A stretch of 64,000 nucleotides of DNA from Deltaproteobacteria bacterium (GCA_016218765.1 JACRCZ010000056.1:28162-92161); one strand, 5' to 3'; positions 17,426 to 27,373 are shown, counted from the first letter of the stretch. Notes: generated from the sequence alone by a model not told the origin. Translations and numbers: made by a program.

Positions 17426-18196
17426 CTACGCCAGACGCCGGCGCACCACCTCGGCCAGGAGCAGCACGAGGACGACGACGAGGAACGGGCGGATGACGCG
17501 TTCGCCCCGGCGCAACGCGACCATCGACCCGAGCTGATTGCCGGCGATGCCCGCGGCCGCGGCGTAGAGCGCCAGCGGGAAGACCACCCGCCCGCCGGCG
17601 AGGAAGACGACGACGGCGCCGGCGTTGCTGGCCAGGTTCACGAGCCGTGCGTTGCCGGACGCCGTGAGCAAGTCGAAGCGCAGCGCCAGATGGAACCCGA
17701 TGGCCAGGAACGTCCCCGTCCCGGGACCGAAGAAGCCGTCCCACGCGCCGACGAGCAGGCCGAGCACCGCCGCCCTGAGCAGCGGCCGCCCGGCCTCGCC
17801 GCCGGCTGCGAGCGGCGCACGGCGGAGCAGCCGATCCTGGAACAGGAGCACGACGAGCGCCCCCGGGACCAGAACGAGCACGACGGTGTGTACCGTGGCC
17901 GGCGGGACGAGCAGCACGGCGCGGGCCCCGGCCGCCGAGCCAACGAGCGCGCCGGCGGCGGCGACGAGCGCGGTGCGCACGTGGATCCTGCGCGCGCGCC
18001 AGTAGCGCCACGTCGCGGTGAGGGTGCCCAGCACGGACGAGAACTTGTTGGTCGCCAGGGCAGCGTGGGGCGGCAGGCCGAGCGCGAGGTACGCGGGCAC
18101 GCTGATCAGCCCGCCCCCGCCGGCGATCGAATCGACGAACCCCGCCAGGAATACCAATCCGCACAGCGCGACGATCGCCCACAGGGAGAGGTCCAC
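17426..18196 (-). CDS. TSUP (TauE/SafE sulfite exporter) family membrane protein
   Basis: LAGFVDSIAGGGGLI, ATNK, GAWDGFFGPGTGTF and NLASN motifs, with about 8 hydrophobic segments. Confidence 0.9.
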   Translation of the reverse strand: MDLSLWAIVALCGLVFLAGFVDSIAGGGGLISVPAYLALGLPPHAALATNKFSSVLGTLTATWRYWRARRIHVRTALVAAAGALVGSAAGARAVLLVPPATVHTVVLVLVPGALVVLLFQDRLLRRAPLAAGGEAGRPLLRAAVLGLLVGAWDGFFGPGTGTFLAIGFHLALRFDLLTASGNARLVNLASNAGAVVVFLAGGRVVFPLALYAAAAGIAGNQLGSMVALRRGERVIRPFLVVVLVLLLAEVVRRRLA

Positions 18197-18326
18197 GATT
18201 GCTCCGCTCGCGGGCGGATGGCCCCGCGGCGCGCGCGACCCTAGCGCGGGTTGACCTTACGTTCCAGCGGCGTCAGGCTGCCGGTCGAGAACCGCGGCGC
18301 CCGCGGGCGCAAGGAACGGCGCGACC

Positions 18327-18965
18327 ATGGAGCGAACCGCTACCCTTCCCCATCGGTGTCCATCGGTGTTCATCGGTGGTTTCCTCCTTGTCCTGACCGG
18401 ACTACCCGGCTGCAGGAGTCGCCCGACGGGCGCGGACGGGAGCCACGAGACCGCGGTCACGGCGGCGACGGCGGCCGGGGACGGCGCGGCGACGGCGGCC
18501 GGGGACGGCGCGGCGACGGCGGAGGACGCGGCGACCGCGAGCCCGGTGCCCGGCGCGGAAGGCGGCGCGGAGGCGCCCGCGGCAGGCCCCGAGGACGTCG
18601 TGCGCCGCTACATCCTGCTCGGGGCGGCGGGTGGGGATCTGCGGCAGGCGCGCGAGCTGGTCGATCCGCGCTGCCTCGACGCGGGCGTCGGCCGGGTCGA
18701 GGCCGTGATCCTGCTCGGCGCCCGCATGGCCGTCGGCAGCGTCGAGACGACCCTGCTGGCATCCGACGAGGCGACCGCCAAGGTCGAGGCCCGCATCTCG
18801 GGGTCGGTCTACGCCGCCGACCCGGCCGGCTCCGTGGAGGTGCTCGGAACCAACGTCGACATCCGCGTCGGCGAGCTGAGCGCGAGCGGCATGGTCCGGA
18901 CGGCGACGCTGCGGCTGAAGAAGATCGACGGCTCCTGGCGCGTGACCTGTCGCGAAGCCGAGTGA
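18327..18965 (+). CDS. Hypothetical lipoprotein
   Basis: Signal peptide ending LPGC, an Ala/Thr/Asp linker, and a C-terminal NTF2-like-looking segment (LKKIDGSWRV). Confidence 0.6.
   Translation: MERTATLPHRCPSVFIGGFLLVLTGLPGCRSRPTGADGSHETAVTAATAAGDGAATAAGDGAATAEDAATASPVPGAEGGAEAPAAGPEDVVRRYILLGAAGGDLRQARELVDPRCLDAGVGRVEAVILLGARMAVGSVETTLLASDEATAKVEARISGSVYAADPAGSVEVLGTNVDIRVGELSASGMVRTATLRLKKIDGSWRVTCREAE
18345..18383. repeat. Decamer repeat element (CATCGGTGTY)n inside a signal-peptide coding region, copy 1
   Basis: cttccccatcggtgtccatcggtgttcatcggtggtttc matches 26315-26353 at 37 of 39 positions. Confidence 0.9.
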
Positions 18966-18990
18966 CCGGCGCGGGGGCGGCCGGGGCGGT

Positions 18991-20781
18991 TCAGCAGCTC
19001 CCGCGGCACTCGCCCGTGTGCCCGCCGCTCGTGCAACACGACGCGGGGGCCACGCAGGAGACGCCGTCCACCGGGCAGATGCAGGCGTAGGACGAGCAGG
19101 CGCTGCCGGTGGGGTCGCCCAGGCAGTCGGAGTCGGCGCAGCAGTTGCCGGGGTTGCGGCAGGCGCCGCCGCAGCAGACGCCGGTGCCGCCCACCGCGCA
19201 CGTCGTCCCGTCCGGCTGGCGCACGTCGGCCGGGCAAGCCGAGGCCGAGCCGGTGCAGTTGTCGGGGATGTCGCAGCCTCCGGAGGGCGGCCTGCAGACC
19301 GTCGTCGCCGGGAGGTAGGCGTTGGGCGGACAGGCCGCCGACGTCCCCGTGCAGCTCTCGGCCGCGTCGCAGCCGCCGGGCGCCGCGGGACGGCACTCCG
19401 TCGCCGCCGGGCGGAAGACGTCGGCCGGGCACGGGGCCGAGGTCCCCGTGCAGTTCTCCGCGACATCGCAGCCGCCGAACGCCGCGGGACGACAGACGAC
19501 GGTTGCGAGCGCCACCAGGTCGGCGGGGCACGCGTCCGACGAGCCGGAGCACCGTTCCTCGACGTCGCAGGTCCCCGCGGCGGCGCGACATACTGCGGTG
19601 GCATCGAGCTTCGCGTCGGGCGGACAGGCGGCCGAAGTCCCGTCGCACCGCTCTTCGGCATCGCAGGCGCCGGCAGCCGGACGACAGGCGACGGTCGGGC
19701 CGGAACGCAAGTCGGACGGGCAGAGCAGCGAGGAGCCGTCGCAGCTCTCGGCGGGATCGCAGGCCCCGGCCGATGCCCGGCACTCGACGGACGACGTCGC
19801 CGGGACGCAGGCGTCGGTGCCGTCGTCGCAGCCGCCGACACAGCCGCCGATCGGGCAGGGGGGAGTTCCCGCCTCGCAGCCGCCGGCGCCGTCGCACGTC
19901 TCGCCGCCGTTGCAGAACGAGCCGTCCTCGCACGACGCGCCCGCCGGCACGGGGCTCCAGCTCCAGGGATCGACGCCGGGCCGGCAGGCCAGGCAGGCGT
20001 TGGCGGGGTCGACGGTGTCCGCCGGGATGCACTCGCCCGCGATGATGCACCAGCCCGGCGCGGCGTCGCAGCGCGCCTCGGCCCCGACACAGGCCTCGCA
20101 GGAGAGCGTGCAGCGCGCGCCGCTCCCGGCGCAGTCGCCGGACGCGCAGGCGTCGGCGACGGTGCACCAGTCGAGGTCGTCGCAGGGGGTGTCGTCGGGC
20201 TCGTCGACCGGGCCGCAGGCGCCGGTCGCGGGGTCGCAGACGTTCGTGCGGCAATCGGTGTCGCCGGACGGATCGCACACGACGACCGTGGTCTCGTCGA
20301 CGACGCACAGTCGATCGCGGCAGACGAGCGTTCCGTTGCACGGGTCGCCGTCCTCGTGCGCGGCGCATTCCGGGGTCGCGTCGCACTGGCAGTCGTTGGG
20401 GCCCGGAACGCACTCCAGGTCGGCGTTGCAGGTGTCGCCGTCGGTGCACGGGTTGCCGTCGTCGCAGGCGCCGCCCGCGTTGGACAGGTGGAAGCAGGAG
20501 CGGCCGCTGACGACGCTCTGGCAGGTATCGAGCGTGCACGGGTCGCCGTCGCCGCACTCGACGGCGGCATGGCAGGACCAGGTGCAGTCGGACTCGCAGC
20601 CGTCGCCGGGCGTCGCGTTCCGGTCGTCGCACTCCTCGGCGCCCTGGAGGACGCCGTCGCCGCAGATCTGCGGGCCGCCGTCGGCCTCGCCGCCGTCGCC
20701 GCCGTCGCCGCCGGCCAGACCCCCGGTGCTCAGCCCGCACCCGGCGGCGAGAGCGAGCAAGAGGAGGAACGCGCGCCTCAC
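18991..20781 (-). CDS. Cys-rich lipoprotein with myxobacterial-type CGDG and CDDGDPCT repeats and six disintegrin-like repeats
   Basis: GTG 20781 overlaps the upstream stop (GTGA). Lipobox AAGC, CGDGVLQGAEECDD, and six copies of CRxxxxxCDxxExCxGxSxxCPxD. Confidence 0.85.
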   Translation of the reverse strand: MRRAFLLLLALAAGCGLSTGGLAGGDGGDGGEADGGPQICGDGVLQGAEECDDRNATPGDGCESDCTWSCHAAVECGDGDPCTLDTCQSVVSGRSCFHLSNAGGACDDGNPCTDGDTCNADLECVPGPNDCQCDATPECAAHEDGDPCNGTLVCRDRLCVVDETTVVVCDPSGDTDCRTNVCDPATGACGPVDEPDDTPCDDLDWCTVADACASGDCAGSGARCTLSCEACVGAEARCDAAPGWCIIAGECIPADTVDPANACLACRPGVDPWSWSPVPAGASCEDGSFCNGGETCDGAGGCEAGTPPCPIGGCVGGCDDGTDACVPATSSVECRASAGACDPAESCDGSSLLCPSDLRSGPTVACRPAAGACDAEERCDGTSAACPPDAKLDATAVCRAAAGTCDVEERCSGSSDACPADLVALATVVCRPAAFGGCDVAENCTGTSAPCPADVFRPAATECRPAAPGGCDAAESCTGTSAACPPNAYLPATTVCRPPSGGCDIPDNCTGSASACPADVRQPDGTTCAVGGTGVCCGGACRNPGNCCADSDCLGDPTGSACSSYACICPVDGVSCVAPASCCTSGGHTGECRGSC

Positions 20782-22169
20782 AGGAGGATCTCGTCCTGGC
20801 ACACGCCAATCTCCATGATCATGTAGAAGAGCGTCAGCTCCTGCTCGTACAGCCCCGGATGCCTCCCGCCGCTGGTGCTGCCCACGGTGTGATAGGTCGT
20901 GAACAGCACGCGCCCGCAGCCGTACTGGAACGACACGGTGAAGGGGTGCGGGGTGTCGTAGTCCCAGGTGTCGACGGTGTGGCTGGTGCCGTCGAGATCG
21001 TCGGCGGTGTAGTTCCACGGTCCTTCGACCCAGGTGATCGGCATGCCGCGCACGACGGCGCCCGTGTCCGGATCGGTTCCCATCTCGCCTTCGAACAACC
21101 CGCCGATCGTGTCCCAATTCTCGAGGGTGTCGAAGCCGTCGTCGAGCAGGTCCTGGGCATCGAGCCAGTCGTGGAGCCCGGTATCGACGGCCGTGGACGG
21201 CGCGTCGAAGGGCGGACCGTGGTTGCAGGTCGGGGGATTCGTGTCCGCCTCGCTGCACCCGCCGTAGAGCGGGCTGTTGAACCAGATGAAGTCGGGCCAG
21301 GGCTGCTCCACGACGGGCATGGCGTAGTCCGAGACGTACAGCTTGCCGCCCTCGGCCACGTACTGCCGCACGCGGTCCTGGACCTCGACGTTGCCCATGA
21401 AGCGGAAGATGGCGTTGTAGGAGCAGTTGAAGAAGATGATGTGGTACGGGCGCATGGTCTCGATGGCGCCGAGCAGGTCCCACTTGTTGGCGCCGTGGTG
21501 TTCCGTGTCGCCGTTGTCGTAGAGGTCGAACGGGGCGTCGGTCTGGTCGTAGTCGTAGCCGTACGCGGAATCGTCCGCGCCGATGCCGACCTTGGCCAGG
21601 ATGTCCTCGATGTGGTCGTAGTCCCCGTAGAGTACGGCGATGTTCGGGATGGTGTCGCCGATCGCGCGATCGGTCCGACTGGGCAGCGTCGTGCGCCACA
21701 CGTCCAGGTCGTAGTCGCCTTCCGTCGCCGGGACGTCGTACTCGGCCACGCGCCGGAACTGGCCTTTCTGCACCGCCAGCCAGTAGTGCCCGCCCGGAGG
21801 AAGGGCGAGCAGGAACGAGCCGTCGGCGGCGGACATCGTGTGCGGCACGGACGGGTCGAGCGTCACGCACTCCTCGCAGTACACCTCGTCGGGGATTTCG
21901 GGAGGCGGCGCGAGGTAGGCGGCGACGAGCGCCCCGGAGACCGGGAAGAGCGACGGCGCGTCGGGCGGCGCCGGCCCCCACACGGTACCGTGCAGGCGCG
22001 CCCCGGGGGGGACGTACGCGTCGGCCTCGGCGTCCCCTCCCCCGCCTTCGTCCCCGGCGCCACCCTCGTCCGTGCGCCCCACGTCGCCGTGGACCGTCTC
22101 GTCCGGATCCGAGCATCCCGGCCCGCCGGCCAGCACCAGGCAACCCACGACCCACGTCCATCGCCGCAT
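20778..22169 (-). CDS. Lipoprotein with a carboxypeptidase-regulatory-like (Ig-like) domain and an uncharacterised C-terminal domain
   Basis: GGAGG RBS, lipobox GPGC, GTVWGP..PVSGALV..SAADGSFLL..VQKGQFRR segment, and typical GC3 codon bias. Confidence 0.75.
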   Translation of the reverse strand: MRRWTWVVGCLVLAGGPGCSDPDETVHGDVGRTDEGGAGDEGGGGDAEADAYVPPGARLHGTVWGPAPPDAPSLFPVSGALVAAYLAPPPEIPDEVYCEECVTLDPSVPHTMSAADGSFLLALPPGGHYWLAVQKGQFRRVAEYDVPATEGDYDLDVWRTTLPSRTDRAIGDTIPNIAVLYGDYDHIEDILAKVGIGADDSAYGYDYDQTDAPFDLYDNGDTEHHGANKWDLLGAIETMRPYHIIFFNCSYNAIFRFMGNVEVQDRVRQYVAEGGKLYVSDYAMPVVEQPWPDFIWFNSPLYGGCSEADTNPPTCNHGPPFDAPSTAVDTGLHDWLDAQDLLDDGFDTLENWDTIGGLFEGEMGTDPDTGAVVRGMPITWVEGPWNYTADDLDGTSHTVDTWDYDTPHPFTVSFQYGCGRVLFTTYHTVGSTSGGRHPGLYEQELTLFYMIMEIGVCQDEILL

Positions 22170-22236
22170 GGCGCACCTCCGAGGCACCGTCAGTGTGGAC
22201 GATCTCTCGCGCACCGGCAAGGTGCGGGAGGAATGC

Positions 22237-23055
22237 TCAGTAGCACGCGCAGTCGGTGGGGGAGGAGCAGATGCCGAAGGTGAAGCCCGAATCGCGGCAG
22301 GTGTCGGAGCAGAGGCCGGGATCGCAGGCGCCGGGATCGGACTTGAGGCCCTCGGCGCCGCCGTCGCCCGGCGGCGGCAGGTCGCCGCCGGAGTCGCGGC
22401 CTTCCCAGCCGTCACGGCCCTCCCAGCCCTCGCGGCCGTCGCGCGGCGGCGGGCCGCCGTCGGTGGGCGGGGGATCGCCGTCGGTGCCGCCGTCCGAGCC
22501 GCCGCCGTCGCAGACGCAGCGGTCGCGGATGCACCGTCCGCCCGAGGCTCCGCCGATCAGGCATTCGATGTTGCAGCTCGTGTCGTCGCAGCCGCCGCCG
22601 TCGGAGCCGCCGTCCGGGCCGCCGTCGGGGCCCCCGCCGTCGCCCATGCCGTCGCGCATCCCGTCGCGCATCCCGTCGCGCATCCCGTCGCGCATCCCGT
22701 CGCGCATCCCGTCGCCCATGCCGTCGGGCGGGGCGTCGGGAATCGCGTCCGCGACGCCGTCGGGCGGCGGGGCGTCGGCGTCCGCGTCCGCGTCCGCGGC
22801 CGAGCCGTCCGGGGCGGGCGTGTCGGCGTCGGCGTCCGCGGCGTCGCTCACGCAGCGGCACGCATCCTCCGCGCAGTAGCCGTCGTCGAAGCCGACCACC
22901 CGGCACGCGTCGCGGCACTCGTCCGGAACGCATCCCCCCGCGCCGGGCACGTCGAAGCACCAGCCCGCGCCGCATCGCGGCTCGTCGAAGTCGGAACGAC
23001 CGCCGCACGAGACGGCGACCCACACGATGACGACCGCGGGAAGAATGGTCTTCAT
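22237..23055 (-). CDS. Lipoprotein with three defensin-pattern (C-x4-C-x3-C-x9-C-x4/5-C-x-C) modules separated by acidic repeat linkers
   Basis: AGGAG RBS and lipobox AVSC. Modules at 22852-22932, 22510-22590 and 22243-22326. Confidence 0.8.
   Translation of the reverse strand: MKTILPAVVIVWVAVSCGGRSDFDEPRCGAGWCFDVPGAGGCVPDECRDACRVVGFDDGYCAEDACRCVSDAADADADTPAPDGSAADADADADAPPPDGVADAIPDAPPDGMGDGMRDGMRDGMRDGMRDGMRDGMGDGGGPDGGPDGGSDGGGCDDTSCNIECLIGGASGGRCIRDRCVCDGGGSDGGTDGDPPPTDGGPPPRDGREGWEGRDGWEGRDSGGDLPPPGDGGAEGLKSDPGACDPGLCSDTCRDSGFTFGICSSPTDCACY
22651..22710. repeat. 12-bp tandem repeat (GTCGCGCATCCC)5 encoding (DGMR)5
   Basis: Five exact units with variant units on each side. Confidence 0.9.
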
Positions 23056-23125
23056 GAGCCCGCTCCTTTCGGGCGGAGGTGTACCACATCCGCAGCGTCG
23101 GGCAAACGCCGACGAGCGACGAGGG

Positions 23126-24223
23126 TCAGGGGCCGGGGGCCGCGGGAGCCAGCGCGCGGGCGCCCAGGGGGATGCAATCGCGGCGGATGGCGGGTTCCTC
23201 GCCGGCGGCTCCGCCGCAGCGCAGCTCGAGGCACCGGCCCTGGGTCCAGGGAAGGAAGACGACGTACCAGAGCTGCGGCCGCGGCTCGTCCATGCGCACG
23301 AAGAAGCTGCGGCCCTCGCCGAGAGGGGACGACACCGGGAGCATCGCCAGGCCCTCGTCGAGCTCGGGTCGCGCGCCCGCGGCGGTGAAGGCGTCGAGGA
23401 CGCGGACCATGCGTTCCGGGTCGGCGGGGCGGCAGTCCGGCCGGTCGTAGACGTGGACGGAGAGCCGGCCCTCCGGGCGGAGGGCGCGGAAGAGCGCGCC
23501 GTCGTGCGGCAGGAGGGTGCTTTCCTCGCGGAGGATGTACCAGCCGTCGGGCACGGAGAGGCGCAGTCCGGCGCGGGGGTCCACGCGGACAGGTCCGTCG
23601 TACGACTCCGCCGCGACCTGCTCCACGGCGCGGGACGTGGTGAACATCCCGGTGGCGGTGGTCACGACGAGCGCGACGGGGTAGAGGGCGAAGAGGCCGA
23701 GCGCTCCGAGTGCCCGCTTGGGGCCGGGCTCGCCGACCGCCAGCAGGAGCGCGGCCGGGAACACGGTCGCGGCCTCCAGCACGTAGGACGGGTGCCGCGT
23801 CTTGGCGTACGAGAGCACGGCGAACAGGATGCCCACGGCGGCCAGCCCCGTGGAGAACAGCCGCGCCTGCTTCGCCTCGCGCAGCACGGCGAACGCCACG
23901 ATCAGCGCCGCGATTCCCCCCGTGTAGAACTCGGGCCCCATCCGCGCCGGCAGGAGGGGCACCGGCACGGCCCGCACCAGGACCGGACCCACGAGGTGGA
24001 CCAGGGCATAGCCGGCCCAGAGGATTGCCAGGACGACGCCCGGACCGTGCGGTCGCTGCAGCATGCGGAGGCTCTTGCCCTTGTGGGTCTCCACGTACCC
24101 CGCGAGGTACTCGTCCCGGCAGCGTTTGGAACAGACGGGGATCTTGGTTCCCGGGTCGCCGCACACGGGCACCTGGATCGGCTGGCGCGTGAGTTTCCCG
24201 CAGACATGACACTTGCTCGCCAC
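23126..24223 (-). CDS. Membrane protein with an N-terminal Cys-rich (CxxC...C...CxxxC) putative Zn-binding region
   Basis: KCHVCG...CSKRC followed by about 5 hydrophobic helices and a soluble C-terminal domain. GTG 24223 is preferred over ATG 24232 because of a -10 box 7 nt upstream. Confidence 0.6.
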   Translation of the reverse strand: MASKCHVCGKLTRQPIQVPVCGDPGTKIPVCSKRCRDEYLAGYVETHKGKSLRMLQRPHGPGVVLAILWAGYALVHLVGPVLVRAVPVPLLPARMGPEFYTGGIAALIVAFAVLREAKQARLFSTGLAAVGILFAVLSYAKTRHPSYVLEAATVFPAALLLAVGEPGPKRALGALGLFALYPVALVVTTATGMFTTSRAVEQVAAESYDGPVRVDPRAGLRLSVPDGWYILREESTLLPHDGALFRALRPEGRLSVHVYDRPDCRPADPERMVRVLDAFTAAGARPELDEGLAMLPVSSPLGEGRSFFVRMDEPRPQLWYVVFLPWTQGRCLELRCGGAAGEEPAIRRDCIPLGARALAPAAPGP

Positions 24224-24230
24224 GGGTCGC

Positions 24231-24236
24231 ATCCTA
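24231..24236 (-). promoter_or_regulatory. -10 box TAGGAT 7 nt before GTG 24223 (probably leaderless)
   Basis: Spacing matches the other leaderless candidates in the window. Confidence 0.3.
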
Positions 24237-24256
24237 CATCGTTCGCGGTCCCGCGG

Positions 24257-25204
24257 TCACCGCGGGGCGCGGCCGGGGTCGACACGCGAATCGGCCCCGG
24301 GTTCCTCGGAGACGAAGAAACGGGCGGACGCGACGCGCCCCGACGTGCGGTCGAGGCGCAGGAACGCGAGCCCGCGCTCGCGCCGCCCCCGCGCCGCCAG
24401 CTCGAAACGGAACGACACGCTCCACCCTGCCGGCGTCACGTCGGCCGCGGAGAGGCGCGCGCCCGCGGGCAGGGACGCCAGCCAACGGGCCGGGGACACC
24501 CGACCCGGCGCGGCGGTCGCGCCGTCCTCGCCCGGAGCATCCGGGGATCGGTCCACGGGATGCTCGACCTCTGCCCCCGGCCCCGAGAAGAGCGCCGCGA
24601 GAGCCCCTTCGTCGCGCGCCGCCACGGCCGACGCCACCGACTCGACGACGTCCCGGCCCCGCCGGCCGACGCCGTCCACCATTCCGCGCGAGTATCCGAG
24701 CGTTCCGGCCAGGCCCTGGATGCGCAGCATCCGGAGCGACAGCCGGGCCATCGTCGCCAGTCCTCGCCCTCCGCCGCGCAGCGCCTGCAGCGACATGCGC
24801 GGCAGCTCCCAGTGCGCCGCCAATCGCCCGATCCGCAGGGCGCCCGCCTCCCCTGCCAGCTGGTAGAGCAGGTGCGACGGGACGGTCAGCTCCAGGCCGG
24901 TCGACAGGCGCGTGTGGATGAGCACGTCGCGCGCGACCTCGCGGCCCGCGACGATGTCCTCGCGCACCTCGAAGCGGATGTCGTTCGGCGCGATGAACGT
25001 GTCCCAGAAGCGCCCCAGCTCGTCGTCCGGCGGATGTCCGCGCCTGCCGGCACCCTTGCGGTGCGGCGCGCTGCCCACCGGATCCTCGACCACCGCGCCT
25101 TCGGTGAACAGCGCGAGCCAGGCGTCCTTGTCGTGCCGCGCGACGCACGCCGGGGACGCGTCCACCAATTCCAGGGCCCGCTCGCGCGTCGGCGTCGTCG
25201 GCAT
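24257..25204 (-). CDS. SnoaL/NTF2-like (ketosteroid-isomerase-like) protein with two domains
   Basis: HDKDAWLALFTEGAVVEDPVGS is a typical N-terminal NTF2-like motif. A second degenerate copy (RDEGALAALFS..VEHPVD) follows. Confidence 0.75.
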   Translation of the reverse strand: MPTTPTRERALELVDASPACVARHDKDAWLALFTEGAVVEDPVGSAPHRKGAGRRGHPPDDELGRFWDTFIAPNDIRFEVREDIVAGREVARDVLIHTRLSTGLELTVPSHLLYQLAGEAGALRIGRLAAHWELPRMSLQALRGGGRGLATMARLSLRMLRIQGLAGTLGYSRGMVDGVGRRGRDVVESVASAVAARDEGALAALFSGPGAEVEHPVDRSPDAPGEDGATAAPGRVSPARWLASLPAGARLSAADVTPAGWSVSFRFELAARGRRERGLAFLRLDRTSGRVASARFFVSEEPGADSRVDPGRAPR

Positions 25205-25211
25205 CCGCGCG

Positions 25212-25239
25212 AGACTACCCGTGCGCCGTGCCGCGTCAA
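25212..25239 (-). promoter_or_regulatory. sigma70-type promoter TTGACG-N16-TAGTCT, 7 nt before ATG 25204 (leaderless)
   Basis: Both hexamers are near consensus and there is no SD. Confidence 0.5.
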
Positions 25240-25322
25240 GTGGCTGAGGCGCGCCGCCGTCGGGATCGGCTCGCCGAACGCGTCGCCGCCGGAGGGTCCC
25301 GCGATCGGGCCGGCCGGTCGCC

Positions 25323-25802
25323 CTACACGAAGAGCTGGACGTCGGCGTCCGCGGCGAAGTCGAGGAACGCGGCGGCGCCGGCGACGTCGGCACCCTCGAT
25401 CAGATCCTCGGCGGCGACGCCCATCACGCCCATCGTCGTCGAGCAGGCGAACAGCTTGACGCCGGACTCGCGCGCCATGGTCAGGAACTCGGGCAGGGTC
25501 GGCAGGTTGGCCTTGCGCATCCAGCCCTTCATCATCGCCGTCGCCGCGGCGGTCATGCCGGGCAGCACGCCGAGCACATTGGGCATGGGGACGGGCATGG
25601 CGGGGTTCGCCAGAGGCGGCACCTTGAGCTTCTTGTGCTTCTTCTTGTGCAGCACGTCCAGGCCGTAGAAGGTGAAGAAGATGCCGGCCTCCCAACCCAT
25701 GCTCGTCGCGGTCGTAGCCAGGATCAGCGGCGGATAGGCGTAGTCCAGGGTCCCGCGGGAGGCGACGATGGCGATACGTCGCGGACGGGAGGGAGCGGTC
25801 AT
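25323..25802 (-). CDS. DsrE/DsrF-like (DsrE2/peroxiredoxin-like) sulfur carrier
   Basis: GTLDYAYPPLILA, IFFTFYGL, FACSTTMGVMG and GAAAFL. The start overlaps the tusA stop (ATGA). Confidence 0.85.
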   Translation of the reverse strand: MTAPSRPRRIAIVASRGTLDYAYPPLILATTATSMGWEAGIFFTFYGLDVLHKKKHKKLKVPPLANPAMPVPMPNVLGVLPGMTAAATAMMKGWMRKANLPTLPEFLTMARESGVKLFACSTTMGVMGVAAEDLIEGADVAGAAAFLDFAADADVQLFV

Positions 25803-26050
25803 CGGGTGCCGCTCTTGCGCACGTAGAAGACGTGCACGCCATCCTCCAGGCGCGTGTCGAGCAGCTCGTGCCCGGTCTGGCGGGCGAAGGCAGGGAAGTC
25901 GCGCAGCGAGCCCGGGTCGGTGCAGAGCAATCGCAGCACCTGGCCCGAGGTCATCCGGGCCAACGCCTGCGACGCCTTGTACACGGGCATCGGACAGAGC
26001 ATCTTCCGGCAGTCCAGGGTCAGGTCGGATGCGATCGGTTCCTCCGCCAT
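25799..26050 (-). CDS. tusA: TusA/SirA-family sulfurtransferase
   Basis: LDCRKMLCPMP (CPxP), TDPGSLRDF, 83 aa. Confidence 0.88.
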   Translation of the reverse strand: MAEEPIASDLTLDCRKMLCPMPVYKASQALARMTSGQVLRLLCTDPGSLRDFPAFARQTGHELLDTRLEDGVHVFYVRKSGTR

Positions 26051-26296
26051 CACGCCCCCTTCGGCCGGCGCGCACGCGCGCCAGACAACGCCGGCACCGT
26101 AACGACGACCCGCCAGACGGTCAAGAGCGAGAGCGCGAGCCGAGAGCACGAGCGGACCGGAACCACCCCTCCCGCCCACTCGACCCAGGCCGCCACGGAC
26201 CCGTTCCGCCCGTTCCGCCCATTTGACCCCCGGGCTCGCTCGCGTCAGTCTGTCGTCCGGCGCCCGCGGCCCGCGCGGGACGCAGGGAGGACGACG

Positions 26297-27373
26297 ATGC
26301 CACGGCTCCAGACGCTTCCCCATCGGTGTCCATCGGTGTCCATCGGTGGTTGCTTCCTTCTGTTCTCCGTCCTCGTGCCCCTTTCCCCCGCCTGCACCCC
26401 GAACGCGGCGGACGACGACGAAGCGGGGAGCGAGACGGGGGACGCCATCGATGCGGAGCACGTCTCCGACGGGCGGGAGCGGCCGGCGGAGGAGGAGATC
26501 ACGGTGCCTCCCAACCCGATCGCGCCGGAGCGCTACGATTGCGGCGCGCACGACGACCCGCCGCCCGAGCGCACGAGTCCCATCGCCTGGAGCTGCCTCC
26601 TCGACCACACATGCCGCGAGCGTTTCATCATCGGCCACCGGGGCGCCGGCGGTGATTTCGGCGTGGTTGCGCCCGAGAACTCGCTGGCCGCCTTCCGCGC
26701 CGCCATCCTGATGGCCACCGACTACCTGGAGACGGATCCGCGCGTGACGACGGACGGCGAGGTGATCCTGTTCCATGATCCCGAGGTCGACCGGGTGATG
26801 GAGGGCACGGGCACGATCGAGGCGATGACGTTCGCGCAGGTGCGCGCGTTGTCGTTCCAGACGGACAAGTACGAGGGGGACTTCTCGTGCGAGCGCATTC
26901 CGACGCTGCGCGAGGCGATCGCGCTGTGCCGCGACCGGGCGATCCTGATGCTGGACATGAACAAGACGGACGACGTGGAGGCGGTCGTCGCCGTCATCCA
27001 GGAGGAGGACGCGGTCGACCAGGTGATCTTCGACACCTCGAGCCTGGACAAGATCGATCGCGCGCTGACGCTCGAGCCCGGCCTGGCGATCCAGATCCGC
27101 CCGGACACGGCGGCGGACATCGCGCCGCAGGTCGAGCATTACGCGCCGCTCATCCCGACGATCGTGGAGCTGGAGGCGAACATCCTGGAGGAGGGTGCGC
27201 CCATCGTGCACGCCCTGCCCTCGCGCGTCACGATCGACGTCTTCCTCAGCGCCGACCTCCGCGCCGTCTTCCTGGGCGACCTCGCCGCCTACGCCGCGTG
27301 GTACGACGACGGCGCGGACATGCTGATGACCGAGCGCCCGTATCTCGCCGCGATCGCGCTCGGCCGCCTGTAG
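26297..27373 (+). CDS. Glycerophosphodiester phosphodiesterase family lipoprotein
   Basis: GGAGG RBS, lipobox SPAC, GHRG, PENSLAAF, ETDPRVTTDGEVILFHD and IPTLREA. Confidence 0.85.
   Translation: MPRLQTLPHRCPSVSIGGCFLLFSVLVPLSPACTPNAADDDEAGSETGDAIDAEHVSDGRERPAEEEITVPPNPIAPERYDCGAHDDPPPERTSPIAWSCLLDHTCRERFIIGHRGAGGDFGVVAPENSLAAFRAAILMATDYLETDPRVTTDGEVILFHDPEVDRVMEGTGTIEAMTFAQVRALSFQTDKYEGDFSCERIPTLREAIALCRDRAILMLDMNKTDDVEAVVAVIQEEDAVDQVIFDTSSLDKIDRALTLEPGLAIQIRPDTAADIAPQVEHYAPLIPTIVELEANILEEGAPIVHALPSRVTIDVFLSADLRAVFLGDLAAYAAWYDDGADMLMTERPYLAAIALGRL
26315..26353. repeat. Decamer repeat element (CATCGGTGTC)n inside a signal-peptide coding region, copy 2
   Basis: Near-identical to 18345-18383; both read LPHRCPSVxIGG. 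Confidence 0.9.

Follow-up and report, generated by a model that had tools for sequence, protein, structure and literature searches.

Introduction

How one and the same short repeat comes to lie in the N-termini of two unrelated predicted lipoproteins is the question raised by a 64,000-nt stretch of DNA from a Deltaproteobacteria bacterium (GCA_016218765.1, JACRCZ010000056.1:28162-92161), referred to here as the window, in which positions are counted from the first letter. The repeat occupies 18345-18383 (CTTCCCCATCGGTGTCCATCGGTGTTCATCGGTGGTTTC) in gene A and 26315-26353 (CTTCCCCATCGGTGTCCATCGGTGTCCATCGGTGGTTGC) in gene B. The two 39-mers are identical at 37 bases and differ at the other two, a match that is far beyond chance. 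Both begin 18 nt past the A of the ATG (18327 in gene A, 26297 in gene B), are read in one common frame as LPHRCPSV(F/S)IGG, with F in A and S in B, and are directly followed by a hydrophobic stretch and a cysteine (FLLVLTGLPGC in A, CFLLFSVLVPLSPAC in B), the N-terminus being MERTATLPHRCPSVFIGGFLLVLTGLPGC... in A and MPRLQTLPHRCPSVSIGGCFLLFSVLVPLSPAC... in B. The mature proteins are unrelated and their mutual resemblance is confined to the N-termini; protein B carries a glycerophosphodiester phosphodiesterase (GDPD) domain (PF03009), and protein A has no match in Pfam or NCBIfam.

Signal peptides take nearly any sequence that preserves their layout of n-, h- and c-regions and evolve fast, and the source of their new sequence is seldom visible. 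The original prediction, made from the sequence of the window, saw in this pair a repeat element co-opted as a portable N-terminal export or leader cassette, or else an element that targets translation starts. As outlined here, the pair probably reflects a mobile repeat that was captured opportunistically, and on occasion truly exapted, rather than a dedicated export cassette.

A dispersed decamer module

The genome under study (G000) is a 5.9-Mb metagenome-assembled genome (MAG) of about 80% completeness, and G004 is the MAG of a sister species. That the 39-nt element is a repeat, as originally recognized, is borne out by hundreds of copies throughout G000. The 18-mer CATCGGTGTYCATCGGTG has four matches in the window, where 0.12 are expected, and with up to two mismatches it has 368 matches in the genome and none for the reversed control. 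With the same tolerance, the strict core ATCKGTGTYCATCKGTGG occurs in 224 copies at 170 loci (129 solo, 30 doublets, nine triplets and two quadruplets), again with a reversed control of zero, and neighbouring copies form 49 direct vs five inverted pairs. The consensus consists of a C-rich lead-in, two or three phased decamers CATC[G/T]GTGT[C/T] (CATCKGTGTY), an end GTGG-TTYCC, most often GTGG-TTTCC, and a pyrimidine-rich tail. Two variants, CATCTGTGT (about 120 copies) and CATCGGTGT (about 95 copies), coexist in the genome and are seldom mixed inside a single copy.

Genes were called with our own codon-score caller (4458 genes, 90.5% of the genome coding). In this annotation 181 of the 224 copies (81%) are intergenic and just five lie deep inside called genes. 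The intergenic context is divergent for 75 copies, tandem co-oriented for 51, tandem anti-oriented for 68 and convergent for 15, both orientations being common. The frame of the copies relative to the downstream gene is uniform (31:29:26), and where repeat and gene are co-oriented, the gene mostly begins 3' of the repeat, with a start and a signal peptide of its own. Genes for exported proteins are not enriched beside the copies, whether lipoprotein-like (37/199, 19%, vs 453/2313, 20%, of the other genes with an upstream gap) or signal-peptide-like (88/199, 44%, vs 1002/2313, 43%). Neither a portable export cassette nor the targeting of translation starts is borne out by this distribution. Randomness of the copies in frame and position had been named beforehand as telling against such roles, and with respect to frame this is what the census gives.

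Two N-terminal look-alikes of protein A (L165 and L168) proved to be antisense intergenic copies and were dropped. At two further sites of G000, C132:30390-30465 and C152:7813-7895, copies form tail-out inverted pairs with spacers of 39-45 nt. The reading frame runs through these pairs as M(D/N)TDEHRWLRP...SVFICVHLW and on into a signal-peptide-like stretch; both arms of these miniature elements appear to be translated.

Lineage restriction and turnover

Among 61 relatives in the class, only G000 (393 overlapping matches) and G004 (347), which share about 87-90% nucleotide identity, carry the module, and three congeneric genomes (G001-G003) lack it. Between the two carriers the repeat turns over quickly. 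Copy number is equal at about five and different at about ten of 15 syntenic loci, and one locus, 45 nt 5' of a gene start, has a clean 160-nt presence/absence difference, a single clean case with no obvious target-site duplication. Several of the 'empty' sites retain one degenerate unit, so that arrays also seem to shrink, besides being gained by insertion.

Where orthologous copies of G000 and G004 differ at the variable base of the decamer (G, T or C), the difference extends to all three units. This is seen at L069:2578-2676 vs C63:2611-2741, L115:410-508 vs C1:979-1169, L137:5034-5132 vs C111:68305-68396 and L070:1537-1719 vs C128:32152-32242. Since the units change together, such concerted change would imply homogenisation by contraction and re-expansion, or the overwriting of a whole copy by another. 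At one intergenic site, the decamer module of G004 (L136:3639-3737) corresponds in G000 to a repeat family of the CGCAAAGG type (C13:17633-17754, about 10.4 kb before the start of the window), which suggests common hot spots or mutual replacement of repeat families.

The repeat in the predicted signal peptides of genes A and B

In both genes, the only in-frame start preceded by a Shine-Dalgarno (SD) sequence is the ATG upstream of the repeat, and there is no further start codon between the repeat and the cysteine. The third-position G+C is high in the codons right after the cysteine, as is typical of coding sequence here. The orthologues in G004 (67% amino acid identity for A and 90% for B) retain the ATG, the SD, Arg3, the repeat and its frame. 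In gene B the two genomes show no difference from the SD up to and including the second decamer, and there is no frameshift, and the sole nearby indel of gene A falls immediately 5' of the ATG. Because the only SD-preceded start lies upstream and G004 preserves the frame, the repeat is most likely translated, and in A and B it very probably lies inside the signal peptide. The alternative that the original prediction itself had raised, true starts downstream of the element, does not apply to these two genes. We infer the ATG start, the translation of the repeat and the processing of the signal peptide in this way, as we do the way in which the module spreads.

By reading, the predicted signal peptides have a charged n-region (R3 and R10) followed by the h-region FLLVLTGL in A and CFLLFSVLVPL in B. 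The repeat encodes residues 7-21 of A and 7-22 of B, and genome-wide blastn matches at site A span 18343-18389; the lipobox and most of the h-region lie outside the repeat. In the frame used by both genes, the G-variant contributes one Arg (HRC). The h-region substitutions between the B orthologues (C>S, F>L, V>L, V>L) mostly exchange one hydrophobic or small residue for another, and the lipobox region is reshuffled as well. The lipobox in G004 is LAAC for A, which is canonical, and SLGC for B.

The repeat-free congeners G001-G003, which would have allowed an empty-site comparison, have no orthologues of A and B, and more distant homologues take their place. These have ordinary short lipoprotein signal peptides, MMRSLCLMLLLVPASAC (G024) and MKFLSARRLAVLVGGIGVVAC (G006) in the A family and MKKLFTATFLPALFIIPFAFAAC (G007) and MKHTIRGLVACALIAAC (G006) in the B family, with lipoboxes VVAC, ASAC, FAAC and IAAC. 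Since repeat-free homologues carry ordinary lipoprotein signals, export appears to be older than the repeat, which would have entered existing signal peptides. Removal of 42 nt from gene A would leave MERTAILVLTGLPGC, a plausible minimal lipoprotein signal; the boundaries are uncertain.

In the capture scenario, the 39-bp sequence would be a solo copy of a dispersed triple-decamer module, multiplied in the G000/G004 lineage to a few hundred mostly intergenic copies that are quickly gained, lost and resized. In A and B, an in-frame copy would have landed behind the start codon and ahead of the hydrophobic core of a pre-existing lipoprotein signal peptide, where it would be translated as an extension of the n-region (LPHRCPSVxIGG, with one Arg) and its tail would encode the first residues of the h-region (F/C-L-L). 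The signal peptide being cleaved off, the mature proteins would remain unaffected. The coding properties of the module are in line with such tolerance. None of the three frames has a stop codon in 214 of 223 sense copies, each taken as 45 nt of core and tail, vs 65% of random intergenic 45-mers, from which the copies also differ in mean hydropathy (+0.91 vs -0.79) and in charged residues (5% vs 25%). As its sense strand is stop-free, hydrophobic and nearly uncharged, and as signal peptides are permissive, an insertion would be tolerated.

Positions of the features discussed are collected in Table 1. The promoters listed there are putative and are read solely from the conserved TTGACC box; strict sigma-70 and terminator scans of the 5' regions of A and B called no promoter. 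Two further short duplications were noticed in the window. At 18465-18512, GCGACGGCGGCCGGGGACGGCGCG stands twice in direct succession, a 24-nt duplication that gives the low-complexity linker of protein A two copies of AATAAGDG. At 26200-26219, two direct copies of CCGTTCCGCC lie just 5' of the TTGACC box of gene B, in a region that is not conserved in G004.

Table 1. Sequence features at the two repeat-bearing loci of the window.
Feature	Position	Strand	Remarks
Site A triple-decamer module, G-variant	18345..18389	+	CTTCCC + CATCGGTGTC CATCGGTGTT CATCGGTGG + TTTCCTCCTT tail
Site B triple-decamer module, G-variant	26315..26359	+	CTTCCC + CATCGGTGTC x2 + CATCGGTGG + TTGCTTCCTT tail
Gene A, hypothetical lipoprotein, 212 aa	18327..18965	+	Predicted signal peptide M1-C29 (18327-18413)
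Gene B, GDPD-family phosphodiesterase, 358 aa	26297..27373	+	Predicted signal peptide M1-C33 (26297-26395)
SD-like AAGGAA	18311..18316	+	10 nt before gene A ATG; GAGGAA in the sister genome
SD GGGAGGA	26285..26291	+	5 nt before gene B ATG; identical in G004
Promoter-like TTGACC-N14-CGTCAGGCTG	18251..18280	+	Upstream of gene A; kept in G004; putative function
Promoter-like TTGACC-N14-CGTCAGTCTG	26223..26252	+	Upstream of gene B; kept in G004; putative function
Alternative in-frame GTG inside repeat	18366..18368	+	Rival start of gene A; without SD; uncharged n-region
Alternative in-frame GTG inside repeat	26336..26338	+	Rival start of gene B

Other genes with repeat-built N-termini

In a crude screen, 14 genes came out as having a signal peptide only if translation starts within a repeat copy or upstream of one, all three sense frames being in use, and three of these genes have a clear series of orthologues. 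The first, at C119:93807-95241, encodes an outer-membrane-protein-like product whose h-region is repeat-encoded in both G000 and G004 (SVFICGFLLF and SVFICGFFFF), everything before ...SAPS(A)RA|DD coming from the repeat; in G002 and G003 it has normal signal peptides ending in ...ARA|DDTHYQ, and just the cleavage region ARA|DD is common to all. In the second (C102:34969-36889), the orthologues of G002, G003 and G005 have normal signal peptides, and the gene of G000 reads MRTADTRRESGSPLLPLHLCSSVFICGFLFPLLACLPSASA|Q from a strong AGGAGG-ATG start, with an h-region derived from the repeat. The upstream arrangement of its orthologue in G004 differs: at L183:1360-1440, the stretch encoding the signal peptide is separated from a degenerate decamer copy by a GC-rich double-hairpin element (GAACCGCGGGCTTCAGCCCGCGG ... 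CGCGCCCTGAAGGGCGCGGTTCGG), another type of repeat that reshapes this 5' end. In the third, a lipoprotein gene (C72:7248-8334), an antisense copy itself gives the SD and the ATG in G000 (MDTDEHRWGRQGWLLVAFAMTAWITAC); the orthologue in G004 starts at an ATG of its own, about 85 nt 3' of an antisense copy, and those of G002 and G005 have normal signal peptides. Of the idea of a repeat that builds N-termini, it is therefore the N-termini that stand, very probably so in A, B and several other genes, and the dedicated cassette that does not.

The antisense strand of the module, as used in the C72 gene, has properties of its own: the encoded peptide is hydrophilic (mean hydropathy -2.03) with 36% charged residues, and an ATG is available in each frame. 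Tentatively, the module may be an undescribed mobile unit that acts as a two-faced donor of protein N-termini and has repeatedly replaced or extended n- and h-regions of the signal peptides of exported proteins since it invaded this lineage. The antisense face of such a donor would supply a purine-rich SD and an ATG in three frames, the native start of its nuclease cargo in other phyla, and the sense face a stop-free, hydrophobic and uncharged block. If this is true, invasion by the repeat would be a systematic driver of signal-peptide turnover, possibly altering the expression of secreted proteins too.

The module as the end of a nuclease cassette in other phyla

An exact scan for a 31-mer of the module, with one genome per species, found it in at least 115 contigs of many phyla with G+C contents from 39% to 72%; the host groups listed include Cyanobacteria, Verrucomicrobia, Acidobacteria, Planctomycetes, NC10, Chloroflexi, Proteobacteria and others. 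Among the matches listed, tail-out inverted pairs account for 52 of the 66 adjacent pairs outside the sister genome; the distance is 355-433 nt in nine of the 52 and 25-217 nt in 42. Of nine pairs read at roughly the wider spacing, five have in the gap an intact gene of about 120-140 aa, the ATG of which sits in the decamers (AACCACAGATGAACACAGATG... = MNTD...), so that the left-end copy provides both its SD and its start codon. Both cassette genes that were scanned belong to PF13366 (PDDEXK_3), and the one checked against NCBIfam is TIGR04256 (GxxExxY). As inverted pairs surround a PF13366/TIGR04256 gene, the module is, in these other phyla, the inverted end of a small GxxExxY/PDDEXK_3 nuclease-gene cassette. 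The 42 close pairs (loci L031-L145) look like gene-less miniatures of this cassette.

The copies in the window resemble these cassette ends in that the 31-mer is identical or nearly so; moreover, the left-end copy gives SD and ATG to the nuclease gene as the antisense solo copy does to the C72 lipoprotein gene. They differ in being solo, with neither an inverted-pair partner nor a nuclease gene, and in being placed inside the coding sequence of other genes. No PDDEXK_3 gene with CATCKGTGTY ends was found in G000 and seven relatives (MAGs 78-99% complete). Searches of the published literature on GxxExxY, PDDEXK_3, PF13366 and the decamer strings returned passing mentions and nothing that describes the repeat.

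Of the PF13366 genes, the three in G000 and eight in relatives end in other short tandem repeats. Those of G000 are PDDEXK_3/GxxExxY genes at C98:22297-22647 (L170), C53:76249-76584 (L171) and C105:21466-21816 (L172), and the repeats are arranged in inverted fashion at C53 and C105, an upstream array alone being seen at C98. The repeat words, GGAACAC(G) units, (G)ACGCAAAGG units and GGAGAGGTGGGGAGG, are themselves dispersed in G000, in 34, 12 and 36 exact copies, respectively, vs zero for the reversed controls. Because other dispersed repeats occur at these genes, several repeat families, each accompanying a nuclease cassette, may be present in G000.

Competing explanations

Several points weigh against opportunistic capture. 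The in-frame GTG within the repeat (18366, 26336) could be the true start, half of the repeat then being untranslated. Measured against the pattern [LVI][ASTVI][GAS]C, the lipoboxes of G000 are atypical, LPGC in A and SPAC in B, with Pro at -2, and the status of A and B as lipoproteins is taken from sequence reading and homologues. The gene caller and the signal-peptide rule are crude and over-call, as 39% of all genes appear signal-peptide-like. G000 is about 80% complete, so that the cognate nuclease cassette may be missing from the assembly. Finally, the same frame, the 18-nt offset and the upstream likeness of the two genes (p ~0.002-0.007) are not fully explained by independent neutral insertions.

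The last point leads to the strongest rival, which we regard as serious and yet rather unlikely, namely that A and B share a duplicated or converted module of about 130-170 nt comprising promoter, 5' untranslated region (UTR), start codon and repeat. The repeat would then be conserved because it is part of a genuinely portable leader cassette, present twice in genes 8 kb apart. In its favour, both genes share not only frame and offset but also Arg at codon 3 and Thr at codon 6, and TTGACC-N14-CGTCAG-K-CTG lies 76 nt (A) and 74 nt (B) before the ATG, these being two of only six exact TTGACC-N14-CGTCAG sites in the genome. In addition, a local alignment of the 110 nt 5' of the repeat in A and B scores above 99.3-99.8% of random gene-start regions, and both arrangements are older than the split between G000 and G004. 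Against a shared origin, identity outside the repeat is low and needs indels, there is no third copy of the upstream part in the genome, and the h-regions and lipoboxes differ. The near-consensus -35 box and a -10 hexamer with A2 and T6 could be convergent promoter features, and the motif was defined after the pair had been seen. The 12-mer cggcgcccgcgg, pointed out in the original prediction, is indeed present upstream of both genes but is a common word that carries no information (98 copies in the genome vs 95 for its reversal), and it was dropped as a chance GC-rich word. It is possible that a promoter-leader module was duplicated or converted long ago, which would be compatible with capture of a mobile repeat.

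It is improbable that the repeat is largely 5' UTR, with translation from the internal GTG codons or with upstream ATGs that are fortuitous; the contribution of the repeat would in that case be limited to a start codon and a handful of residues. Owing to the 10-nt period, each of the three frames has a GTG, so that any downstream open reading frame (ORF) finds one in frame, the score-based gene caller chose the internal GTGs for A and B, and at co-oriented loci the gene mostly starts clearly 3' of the repeat with its own signal peptide. However, the internal GTGs lack a purine-rich SD and the signal peptides that start at them (MFIGGFLLVLTGLPGC and MSIGGCFLLF...) have an uncharged n-region, whereas the upstream ATGs have SDs that are kept in G004 along with Arg3, and the position of the lone indel near gene A, immediately upstream of the ATG, also speaks for the upstream start.

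Least probable of all, and very much so, is that the decamer array is a functional cis-element at gene 5' ends, whether a phased protein-binding site or an RNA-level translational control, with an incidental coding role: with its exact 10-bp phasing all units face the same side of the helix, about 93% of the copies are in intergenic regions holding at least one gene 5' end, the 39-nt cores of A and of B each differ by a single change between two genomes of about 87% identity and the pyrimidine tail has the anti-SD-like word CCTCC, but orientation is mixed, distance to starts is variable, the repeat is gained, lost or resized at most syntenic loci between sister species and missing from the other genomes of the genus, and divergent and tandem intergenic regions are simply the longest available. 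Moreover, the RNA folds of the A and B leaders and of their G004 orthologues are no stabler than shuffles (z +0.17, +0.33, -1.21 and +0.66), and an Rfam scan of 18000-26700 (E up to 1) returned a single, weak and unrelated match, which lends no support to a structured RNA or to SD sequestration at these leaders.

Relation to known repeat families

The closest functional precedent for the presumed capture of the module by signal peptides is the in-frame insertion of Rickettsia palindromic elements (RPE), which are said to have been described by Ogata et al. in 2000 as inserted in frame in protein-coding genes, and which reportedly are palindromes of 100-150 bp found at many protein positions. 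Like them, the module is a short dispersed repeat of seemingly selfish nature that lies in frame in an ORF left intact, would be translated as an extra segment and would be tolerated because of its location. Unlike them, it measures about 30-45 bp and consists of decamers in direct tandem rather than of a hairpin; its genic copies are found almost only at N-termini and signal peptides, and in the opposite orientation it can donate a start codon. Mycobacterial interspersed repetitive units (MIRU) are another short repeat, reported, it is said, by Supply et al. in 1997 as mycobacterial intergenic repeats of 46-100 bp that are operon-oriented and lie between the genes of polycistronic units. The module resembles them as a short intergenic repeat of variable copy number whose frames overlap the start and stop signals of flanking genes, and departs from them in its mixed orientation and in becoming part of signal peptides.

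In its population behaviour, the module is closest to REPIN/RAYT systems and to miniature inverted-repeat transposable elements (MITEs). REP and REPIN sequences occur in hundreds of short intergenic copies per lineage together with a RAYT (Y1 transposase) gene (PMC8049555, PMC3733652). The module shares with them its hundreds of mostly intergenic copies, its dynamic population and, in other phyla, its place as inverted flanks of a single small enzyme gene. It differs in that its unit is non-palindromic, in that the gene flanked elsewhere is a PD-(D/E)XK nuclease (PF13366/TIGR04256) and not a Y1 transposase, and in that a cognate gene with the ends of the module was not found in G000 or the genus. 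The gene-less inverted pairs of other phyla (42 of 52 among the matches listed, 25-217 nt) and the presence/absence differences between the sister genomes recall MITEs. Unlike these, the copies of G000 are solo or in direct tandem (49 direct vs five inverted pairs) and have no terminal inverted repeats, no target-site duplication was recognised and no autonomous partner with the same ends was found in G000. The module lacks defining features of each of RPE, REPIN/RAYT and MITE.

Concluding remarks

The orthologue series described here appear to catch a selfish repeat in the act of remodelling the n-region (A and B), the h-region (C119 and C102) and the start codon (C72) of exported proteins, which offers a concrete and testable route for the remodelling of protein N-termini. 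They also serve as a warning for the annotation of start codons and signal peptides in repeat-rich, high-GC genomes. Moreover, they tie a lineage-specific burst of solo repeats to a GxxExxY/PDDEXK_3 cassette that occurs across phyla and for which no published function or mobility was found. A burst of a cassette end that repeatedly remodels signal peptides, as the sequences suggest, would be of wider interest than the two copies in genes A and B alone.

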